Positions 31,379 through 32,545 of a stretch of DNA of 64,000 nucleotides are shown here, piece after piece. Made by a program: the position numbers and the translations under genes. The stretch is taken from assembly GCF_003334405.1 (NCBI RefSeq), contig NZ_QOWM01000009.1; one strand, given 5' to 3'. This DNA is from Escherichia coli. GTDB lineage: Bacteria; Pseudomonadota; Gammaproteobacteria; Enterobacterales; Enterobacteriaceae. Under the pieces are notes generated by a model. The model ran no database searches. It was not told where the DNA came from and worked only from the letters and a program-made list of their open reading frames with translations. The stretch's first letter is position 1. The number at the start of each line of letters is the position of its first letter.

Positions 31379-32118
31379 GTAACTGGCCTTATCCCCGCAT
31401 CGTCGCTCATCGTGGCGGCGGTAAGCTGGCCCCGGAAAACACCCTGGCGGCAATCGACGTCGGGGCAAAATACGGTCATAAGATGATCGAATTTGACGCG
31501 AAGTTATCGAAAGATGGCGAGATCTTCCTGCTCCATGACGACAATCTCGAACGTACCAGCAACGGCTGGGGCGTCGCGGGTGAACTGAACTGGCAGGATT
31601 TACTGCGCGTGGATGCGGGCAGTTGGTACAGCAAAATGTTTAAAGGTGAGCCGCTACCGTTGCTTTCGCAGGTGGCGGAACGTTGCCGCGAACACGGGAT
31701 GATGGCGAATATCGAAATCAAACCCACCACCGGCACCGGGCCATTAACGGGCAAAATGGTGGCGCTGGCGGCACGCGAGCTGTGGGCCGGTATGACGCCG
31801 CCGCTGCTGTCATCGTTTGAGATTGATGCTTTAGAAGCTGCACAACAGGCGGCACCGGAACTGCCGCGCGGTTTGTTGCTGGATGAGTGGCGCGACGACT
31901 GGCGCGAACTGACCGCGCGGCTGGGCTGCGTCTCTATTCATCTCAATCATAAGTTACTCAATAAAGCGCGAGTGATGCAGTTGAAAGACGCCGGACTGCG
32001 GATTCTGGTTTATACCGTCAATAAACCCCAGCGCGCAGCAGAGTTGCTGCGCTGGGGTGTGGATTGCATCTGTACCGATGCGATTGACGTGATTGGTCCG
32101 AACTTTACGGCCCAATAG
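31375..32118 (+). CDS. ugpQ: Glycerophosphodiester phosphodiesterase
   Basis: 247 aa; N-terminal HRGG motif ([15 protein letters not shown]). Confidence 0.93.
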
Positions 32119-32545
32119 TTTTCAACGGAATGTCAGGCTGCGGCGTGCTGGGCTGATTCAGCATGTCGCCGTTTCTCCTCTCCGGCAGCATATGCTGCTG
32201 ATTCAACGAACTATCCGGATTACGGTTGCTGTTTAACATCCCGCCGTTGGTGTTGGGCAGCATTTGCTGCCGGGCGGGATTTCGCTCCCCCGGCTGTGAC
32301 TGCAACACCCGCTGAGAATTATTGTTTATCTGGTTTTCTAAATGCTGCTGTTGCAACTGAGTTTGCGTTTTCAGTTGCTGATTCAGCATCCCTTTTTGCT
32401 GGATTTGCTGAGTCTGCATCTGGGTTTGCATCCGCTGCTGGCTGGGTATCTGATACCCCGGCTGGTTAGGGTTGTTCAGAGTATTAATGGGCTGTGCAAA
32501 GCCGACAAACGGCAGGAGTGCCGTAAGAATCAGAAGTCGTTTCAT
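32105..32545 (-). CDS. yhhA: Secreted Gln/Asn-rich low-complexity protein
   Basis: 146 aa; signal peptide [17 protein letters not shown]; mature part dominated by Q/N/T repeats; 14-bp convergent overlap with ugpQ 3' end. Confidence 0.8.

Follow-up and report, generated by a model that had tools for sequence, protein, structure and literature searches.

The yhhA locus

We analysed a window of 64 000 nucleotides of Escherichia coli DNA (contig NZ_QOWM01000009.1 of RefSeq assembly GCF_003334405.1) with respect to one short gene, yhhA, which lies on the minus strand between ugpQ and ggt. A first-pass annotation, made from the letters of this stretch, had given the gene its name, had described the product as a secreted Gln/Asn-rich protein of prion-like composition, and had placed its 3' end across that of the convergent ugpQ gene. 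RefSeq annotation of identical DNA gives ugpC, ugpQ, yhhA (as 'DUF2756 family protein') and ggt, and agrees with respect to both coding sequences (CDSs) and their overlap. The list of open reading frames (ORFs) contains the 146-residue frame that had been proposed (Table 1), and the peptide strings quoted as examples of its repeats are found at residues 40–50 and 55–67. The window is E. coli chromosome; of 5426 complete E. coli genomes, 5425 contain a match to the 1.4 kb around yhhA, and yhhA is present and annotated in 5424, K-12 MG1655 included, whose allele is identical to that of the window.

The gene in question is thus yhhA, a core gene of E. coli that was annotated before and is the type member of the DUF2756 family. 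Two family profiles, in the form of hidden Markov models (HMMs), match its product at scores that exceed the curated thresholds. The Pfam model DUF2756 (PF10956) is matched over positions 1–105 of 105 with an i-Evalue of 1.1e-60, and the NCBIfam equivalog NF007675 (PRK10350) over positions 1–145 of 145 with 265 bits, as compared with a cut-off of 136. In codon alignments with 19 other species from 15 genera, the ratio of non-synonymous to synonymous substitution rates (dN/dS) was 0.04–0.25 overall and 0.00–0.14 over residues 18–82, synonymous sites being mostly saturated. yhhA therefore encodes a genuine protein under purifying selection, and the possibility of a spurious or chance ORF is ruled out by the HMM matches, the dN/dS values and published proteomics.

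Table 1. Coordinates of genes and of observed, predicted and candidate features at the yhhA locus (positions in the 64 000-nucleotide window).
Feature	Position	Strand	Basis
yhhA CDS, 146 codons plus stop, ATG start	32105..32545	-	ORF list, RefSeq, family HMMs, dN/dS
ugpQ CDS, glycerophosphodiester phosphodiesterase, 247 aa, last gene of ugpBAECQ	31375..32118	+	ORF list, RefSeq
ggt CDS, RefSeq ATG start, 580 aa	32665-34407	+	RefSeq
yhhA/ugpQ convergent CDS overlap, 14 bp, stop codons included (TTACGGCCCAATAG)	32105-32118	both	ORF coordinates
Predicted signal peptide, residues 1-17, signal peptidase I cleavage between A17 and Q18	32495..32545	-	rule-based, conservation
Mature N-terminal Pro/Asn-rich segment, residues 18-33, predicted non-helical	32447..32494	-	conservation, pLDDT
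Predicted Gln-rich long helix, residues 34-82, DUF2756 core	32300..32446	-	AlphaFold2, periodicity, conservation
Predicted disordered Asn/Gln/Pro/Met tail, residues 83-146	32108..32299	-	pLDDT ~50
Tail unit 1, ~24 residues, QQxMLP...NGxMLN, residues 92-115	32201-32272	-	sequence
Tail unit 2, ~24 residues, QQxMLP...NGxMLN, residues 116-139	32129-32200	-	sequence
Terminator-like hairpin for yhhA, CCCCAGCG...CGCUGGGG then UUUAUU, inside ugpQ	32020..32057	-	RNA fold
Terminator-like hairpin for the ugp operon, 13 pairs, weak T tail, inside the yhhA 3' coding region	32140..32179	+	consensus scan, RNA fold
yhhA Shine-Dalgarno sequence GGAGG, 7 nt before ATG	32553..32557	-	conserved in 17 genera
Near-invariant TAAACTTAA, candidate sigma-S-type -10 element	32572..32580	-	17-genus alignment
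Near-invariant block TAAGCCTGGT in the ggt/yhhA spacer	32621..32630	-	17-genus alignment

Export signal and expression of YhhA

The product had been said to begin with a typical signal peptide, and its N-terminus bears this out. The n-region (MKR) is followed by a 13-residue hydrophobic core (L4–F16) and by small residues at the −3 and −1 positions of the predicted cleavage site (G-F-A↓Q-P). Among close homologues the A17-Q18-P19 junction is invariant and the hydrophobic core varies as that of a signal peptide does; across genera, the −3 residue is G, A, S, C or V and the −1 residue is A. Cys is absent throughout YhhA, which consequently has no lipobox and is not a lipoprotein, and a twin-arginine motif is absent too. 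By these rules, which are the sole basis of the assignment, YhhA conforms to what is expected of a soluble protein exported by the Sec pathway and processed by signal peptidase I, and is predicted to be one.

Published proteomes show that the protein is made. In surface extracts of Shiga toxin-producing E. coli, YhhA was among the 15 most abundant proteins, in a figure that also lists HdeB, Ivy, YmgD, ZraP, SodC and PsiF (PMC9731836), and it is recovered together with stress proteins of the periplasm and outer membrane. It is raised by beta-lactam below the minimum inhibitory concentration (PMC9927464), changes 8.8-fold in Salmonella inside lettuce (PMC4265081), and was also detected in a mutant proteome considered below (PMC7056703). 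Taken together, the identity of yhhA, its export signal and its expression can be regarded as practically certain. A separate observation is that a ppApp photoaffinity probe captured only six E. coli proteins, of which YhhA was one (bioRxiv 10.1101/2021.12.15.472736); such capture is odd for an exported protein and may be an artefact of abundance or reflect capture of the precursor.

Composition and predicted architecture

Mature YhhA (residues 18–146) consists of 22.5% Q, 14.0% N, 10.9% P and 6.2% T, in agreement with the composition first reported for it; C, F and W are absent, and the grand average of hydropathy (GRAVY) is −1.40. Typical residue frequencies in E. coli are 4.4% for Q and 3.9% for N, against which the enrichment in YhhA has binomial P values of 4e-13 and 3e-6 respectively. 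The richest 80-residue stretch, residues 21–100, holds 36 Q/N. The earlier label 'prion-like' is therefore apt for composition only: individual positions are conserved and the Gln-rich core is predicted to be a helix, unlike a low-complexity prion domain that drifts freely.

Modelling and conservation together predict a mature protein with a Pro/Asn-rich N-terminus, a Gln-rich helix of ∼49 residues bearing a narrow Met/Leu/Ile stripe, and a disordered tail. The N-terminal segment (residues 18–33) has a predicted local distance difference test score (pLDDT) below 60; its columns are nevertheless invariant or near-invariant between genera, with a dN/dS of 0.00–0.13. In the AlphaFold2 monomer there is a single helix, spanning residues 34–82 with a pLDDT of 70–88, while the remainder scores ∼50, that is, is predicted to be disordered. 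The helix comprises three 15-residue repeats, with conserved hydrophobic pairs at 39/43, 54/58 and 69/73 and a further hydrophobic position at 80. Averaged over the family, hydrophobicity has its strongest period within the alpha-helical range (3.5–4.0 residues) at 3.75 residues, with a spectral power of 23 as compared with 1.5 at the heptad value of 3.5 residues; the overall maximum of the spectrum lies at 2.15 residues. Purifying selection on the helix is strong (dN/dS 0.00–0.14), and its conservation reaches Erwinia. The high dS of the helix between close Escherichia species (1.5–1.8) was considered as a possible signal and is explained by toggling between CAA and CAG at two-fold sites together with the small number of sites.

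The tail contains two units of similar pattern (Table 1), with conserved positions at L96, P97, N98, G101, M103, L104, H118, M119, L120, G126, M128 and L129; YhhA of E. albertii has one unit fewer. The C-terminal 12 residues are conserved in many genera and are missing from Enterobacter, Leclercia, Lelliottia, Trabulsiella and some Citrobacter, in which the protein stops just past the second motif.

Tandem Repeats Finder detected no tandem array in yhhA, which contains only short dispersed direct repeats; a 13-nt direct repeat, ATGCTGAATCAGC, occurs in two exact copies. Rare in-frame length alleles of E. coli yhhA encode proteins of 96 to 165 aa. All of the indels fall within the Gln-rich and repeat part (residues ∼38–115), every length allele keeps residues 116–146 and, a few point substitutions aside, residues 1–37, and some alleles resemble duplications or deletions between short direct repeats. 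The 146-aa allele predominates: of 60 rows taken at even intervals through the ranking, 59 were full length. Antisense to yhhA (32296–32575, plus strand) are Leu-rich ORFs of 57 and 77 aa, which give no sign of being genes; they arise because CAG (Gln) reads CTG (Leu) on the opposite strand. For the same reason, each MLNQ motif (GCTGAATCAGC) forms a small palindrome.

Distribution of the family and conservation of its neighbourhood

In an alignment of 22 homologues from many genera, 32 columns of YhhA are invariant, including many individual Gln residues. Even in the most distant members, from Erwinia and Apirhabdus, R38, M43 and, in the signal peptide, L10 show no variation, and Q46, Q47, Q50, L69, Q72 and G86 show almost none. 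The family is small. In an exhaustive search of 1.84 billion representatives it amounted to 65 clusters at 50% identity; many of these are fragments, and none connects DUF2756 to another family. Apart from a few in Erwiniaceae, the members found belong to Enterobacteriaceae; those named among the distant ones come from Erwinia psidii, Erwinia sp. HR93 and Apirhabdus.

Genomes were also scanned at one per species, which gave 80 loci. Nearly all of their records bear the names of Enterobacteriaceae genera, one being titled Chryseobacterium sp.; the scan used the alignment of closer homologues, a more divergent alignment being unusable, and is biased towards Enterobacteriaceae accordingly. The order seen in the window, with ggt divergent from yhhA and ugpQ convergent with it, is found in 78 of these 80 loci. 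One of the two exceptions is a cut contig without ggt, and the other a locus with neither neighbour. In distant members, yhhA is convergent with a gene of the glycerophosphodiester phosphodiesterase (GDPD, ugpQ-type) family, at gaps of 1, 1, 35, 92, 371 and 696 bp. A conserved tail-to-tail layout of this kind would be expected if the gene had originated once at this junction and then been passed on vertically.

Two of the distant loci have altered flanks. In Erwinia psidii, a type III effector/chaperone pair (Pfam AvrPphF-ORF-2 and CesT) lies between ggt and the DUF2756 gene (locus positions 2680–3750), the yhhA–ugpQ arrangement being intact. In Apirhabdus apintestini, where the DUF2756 gene occupies locus positions 4001–4333, ggt and ugpQ are gone from the flanks and a transposase lies nearby; the protein has thus been kept without its antisense partner.

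Convergent overlap with ugpQ and embedded hairpins

The 14-bp overlap claimed for the 3' ends of yhhA and ugpQ is exact to the base, and the final 21 bases of yhhA do not vary within Escherichia. Overlap of the two genes is not peculiar to E. coli; it is the rule across Enterobacteriaceae. The CDSs overlap in most of the 80 loci, by 4–23 bp: by 4 bp in most genera, by 14 bp in Escherichia, Dryocola, most Buttiauxella and Cedecea colo, and by 11–23 bp in Enterobacter, Lelliottia and Citrobacter amalonaticus. Gaps of 7–96 bp are found instead in a minority of loci.

Since both mRNAs must include their own stop codons, they are complementary over at least 14 nt. That the transcripts must overlap had been deduced from this geometry, and RNA-seq data agree: yhhA–ugpQ is one of 165 convergent pairs for which ExcludonFinder detected overlapping transcripts in at least 50% of 58 MG1655 transcriptomes (PMC12288877).

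The overlap leaves no intergenic room for terminators, and hairpins were therefore sought inside both genes. On the yhhA side, a terminator-like hairpin lies 48–85 nt beyond the yhhA stop codon, within ugpQ; its fold has a z-score of −3.7, and none of 200 shuffled sequences was as stable. Most genera retain the outer stem, CCCCAGCG/CGCTGGGG, and a counterpart of the hairpin 46–54 nt past the yhhA stop, with a stability of −9 kcal/mol or better and a T-rich tail, is present in 9 of 19 other genera. The GC-rich palindrome concerned (32026–32057) contains the rare Pro codon CCC in E. coli; of 18 other genera whose ugpQ motif could be located, 17 have CCC as well, and Phytobacter has CCG. Retention of CCC despite saturated synonymous divergence is a hint of constraint at the level of the nucleic acid, and suggests that the palindrome embedded in ugpQ may be under selection as an RNA or DNA structure, whether as a terminator of yhhA or as a stabiliser of the 3' end of ugp mRNA. 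On the ugp side, the putative terminator hairpin lies 22 nt past the ugpQ stop, and its fold has a z-score of −2.9. A scan of positions 31300–32800 against Rfam gave no genuine family match.

Both hairpins may act as terminators. Each is inside the partner gene, and if both act, the transcripts would therefore be antisense to one another over ∼160 nt (roughly 32020–32179). Such an overlap could modestly couple sigma-S-driven transcription of yhhA to the ugp operon, which is Pho-regulated, at its 3' end. Several observations weigh against these proposals. The T tract of the yhhA-side hairpin is lost wherever the Lys residue encoded there becomes Gln or Arg, and in many genera both hairpins have T tracts that are weak or unconserved. 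The antisense effect itself is conjectural, and E. coli has 165 convergent pairs of this kind.

Regulation and the ggt/yhhA spacer

Published data, which are correlative, show yhhA mRNA and its protein varying in step with the general stress regulon of sigma-S (RpoS). Genomic systematic evolution of ligands by exponential enrichment with sigma-S holoenzyme gave a peak of intensity 12.9 in the ggt/yhhA spacer (PMC5493296), and yhhA is listed among the RpoS-regulon genes induced upon cold downshift (PMC4057180). During a growth-phase transition in glucose minimal medium, yhhA rose 2.5-fold and, in the same table, rpoS 2.8-fold (PMC2241611), while in a mutant proteome YhhA fell to 0.41x, together with RpoS (0.43x) and OsmY (0.39x) (PMC7056703). 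An inhibitor of LolCDE induced yhhA 5.6- to 9.9-fold, alongside elaB, ycaC and raiA (PMC5105897), an acid shift also induces it (PMC2270276, PMC7824302), and in a set of genes that several stresses up-regulate, yhhA occupies a hub position (PMC9501238).

The 119-bp spacer between ggt and yhhA was aligned for 17 genera. Besides the yhhA Shine-Dalgarno sequence, it contains a near-invariant TAAACTTAA, in which alignment columns T91, A92, A94, C95, T96 and A98 are invariant and T97 is conserved in at least 90%. The sigma-S −10 consensus is TATACTTAA, which TAAACTTAA resembles, and we infer that it is a candidate −10 element of the yhhA promoter. A consensus scan of positions 31800–32750 found no sigma-70 promoter, and the promoter call therefore rests on conservation between genera.

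By eye, a second near-invariant block of the spacer, TAAGCCTGGT, corresponds to no sigma-70 or sigma-54 element; it may be an operator shared by the divergent ggt and yhhA genes or an element of the ggt promoter. Between this block and the ggt ribosome-binding site (32631–32647, plus strand), most of the 17 genera have a GGGG-loop-CCCC (or GGG/CCC) stem with a variable loop, which could be a conserved 5'-leader structure of ggt, a gene whose expression depends on temperature. The start of ggt itself is given differently by the mechanical ORF list, which uses a TTG at 32638 (589 aa), and by RefSeq, which uses an ATG at 32665 (580 aa). The ATG is preceded by GGAGAA and suits the signal peptide MIKPTFLRR.

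Possible functions of YhhA

Much of the above was already on record, namely the gene, its family, its stress regulation and the overlap of its transcript with that of ugpQ, to which our finding adds little. What emerges is an abundant, sigma-S-linked, exported and oddly composed E. coli protein that occupies one locus from Escherichia to Erwinia and to which current annotation, in agreement with the first-pass annotation, assigns no function.

The reading that we tentatively prefer, at somewhat less than an even chance, is that YhhA serves in the periplasm as a stationary-phase and envelope-stress protectant or holdase-like binder, a reading drawn from its regulation, location, abundance and anatomy. 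YhhA would be a strongly hydrated and mostly disordered molecule, acting as a holdase or a shield. The hydrophobic stripe of the helix and the Met-Leu motifs of the tail would touch partners, which might be unfolded envelope proteins or one specific periplasmic protein, and the surface rich in Gln and Asn would hold the complex in solution.

Several points weigh against a protectant or holdase. Neither experiment nor homology links YhhA to a chaperone or protectant role: a Pfam scan matched no periplasmic chaperone family, returning down to an E-value of 10 only DUF2756 and chance matches to CemA and ThsA_Macro, and a profile of 21 diverse members compared with all Protein Data Bank (PDB) sequences had a best E-value of 0.1. 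The Gly content of 5.4% lies below the hydrophilin cut-off of 6%. The periplasmic location assumed for the protein derives from the signal-peptide rules and from co-extraction. Finally, the strong conservation of individual positions, such as R38 and M43, which are unchanged out to Erwinia, is easier to reconcile with a specific partner than with a generic shield.

An alternative that we consider unlikely is that YhhA assembles with itself, the Gln-rich helix forming a polar-zipper coiled coil, or the protein a gel, a condensate or an amyloid-like material at high periplasmic concentration, so that its Q/N composition would be 'prion-like' in function. A Q/N-rich domain of the Michelitsch-Weissman type is defined by at least 30 Q/N in 80 consecutive residues, a value that the 36 Q/N of YhhA exceed, and curli subunits are a precedent for a secreted Q/N-rich amyloid in E. 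coli. The long helix with its narrow hydrophobic stripe and 3.75-residue periodicity recalls non-heptad coiled coils, and the protein is highly abundant in envelope extracts. However, when three YhhA helices were joined by 30-residue Gly-Ser linkers and modelled with AlphaFold2 from a matched alignment, a crude test, the mean pLDDT was 40 and the predicted template modelling score (pTM) 0.28, as compared with a pLDDT of 70–88 for the monomeric helix. There are just about two strongly conserved hydrophobic positions per 15 residues, and both the position-specific conservation and a Pro content of 11% are atypical of prion domains. A more elaborate version of the same idea, which we regard as a long shot, is that a lineage-restricted protein arose once at the ugpQ–ggt junction and stayed there, and that its helix forms a reversible polar-zipper assembly at stationary-phase concentrations, altering the physical state of the periplasm and so protecting the envelope. 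If this were true, the YhhA assembly would be a bacterial, extracytoplasmic counterpart of functional prion-like assemblies.

We give equally little credence to the view that the locus is chiefly a regulatory antisense pair, or excludon, in which mutual read-in between yhhA and ugp makes their expression mutually exclusive and the protein is secondary. The persistence of CDS overlap or near-abutment with the GDPD gene from Escherichia to Erwinia would be expected of such a pair, as would its membership of the MG1655 excludome (PMC12288877), the location of each terminator-like hairpin in the partner gene and the rare CCC codon kept in one of them. Nevertheless, YhhA is under strong purifying selection over its full length and is abundant, and the protein is therefore not a by-product. 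Some lineages have yhhA–ugpQ gaps of 92–696 bp, Apirhabdus retains yhhA without ugpQ, and vertical inheritance of a lineage-restricted gene would equally give conserved adjacency.

It is very unlikely that YhhA works through its methionines, either by binding Cu(I) or Ag(I) in the periplasm through Met and His or as a sacrificial sink for oxidants that is repaired by MsrPQ. M43 is invariant; within the set of 22 closer homologues, so are M53 and M119, and M39, M103 and M128 reach at least 90% conservation. An M-x3-M pair occupies one face of the helix, an HML motif is conserved, and the gene is induced by stress. Yet Met makes up 5.4% of the protein, an enrichment that is not significant (P 0.07), a single Met is invariant in the distant members, the protein has only two His, only 65% of the wider set have a hydrophobic residue at the position of M53, and the literature examined draws no link from yhhA to copper regulators.

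Finally, the proposal that YhhA is a type III effector that mimics substrates of the host ATM kinase through S/TQ and QS/T motifs, for which there are seven S/TQ sites within residues 35–84 and the listing of YhhA from enteropathogenic E. coli as experimentally validated in SecretEPDB (bioRxiv 10.1101/364117), is barely credible, since such dipeptides are expected by chance in a protein with 22% Gln, and since an effector would be restricted to pathogens with a type III secretion system and lack a Sec signal, whereas yhhA is core to E. coli (5424 of 5426 genomes, K-12 included), was found in many genera regardless of pathogenicity, and encodes a conserved, cleavable Sec signal that is predicted to route the protein to the periplasm rather than to the injectisome.

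To return to the preferred reading of a periplasmic protectant or holdase-like binder, the locus offers several handles for functional study: the Gln-rich helix with its 15-residue periodicity, the two Met-Leu motifs, the rare length alleles and the embedded hairpins. Should YhhA prove to be a new protectant, or a self-assembling Gln-rich polymer, it would be of interest to the fields of envelope stress and protein disorder.

Relation to known systems

Braun lipoprotein, Lpp, is like YhhA a small exported protein with one helix of ∼50 residues. YhhA differs from it in having no lipobox or Cys and no heptad periodicity; the linker-joined trimer model is not confident, and the Pfam scan down to an E-value of 10 gave no match to Lpp or to the CpxP/Spy/ZraP (LTXXQ) family. 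With OsmY, HdeA/B, Spy/CpxP/ZraP, YmgD and YbgS, YhhA shares a signal peptide, small size, induction in stationary phase or by stress, and co-extraction or co-regulation, but the searches with Pfam and PDB profiles found no sequence or profile similarity to them.

Hydrophilins are defined by a Gly content above 6% and high hydrophilicity. YhhA resembles these and other proteins of the late embryogenesis abundant type in its hydrophilicity, predicted disorder and induction by stress, and so agrees with one half of the definition; it differs in its Gly content, in being predicted to be periplasmic rather than cytoplasmic, and in being rich in Gln and Asn rather than in Gly, Lys and Glu. Q/N-rich prion-like domains are matched in composition, YhhA having a high Q/N count, few charges and low hydrophobicity. 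Such domains are, however, disordered and conserve composition rather than sequence, whereas YhhA combines predicted Sec export with a predicted helical core, 32 invariant columns, a dN/dS of at most 0.14 and 11% Pro.

At the level of the locus, yhhA and ugpQ are arranged tail to tail with overlapping transcripts, as in excludons (PMC12288877). In this pair the coding regions overlap as well. The closest correspondence is with DUF2756 (PF10956) and NF007675 themselves, with which YhhA agrees in length, locus and RefSeq annotation, and from which it does not differ.

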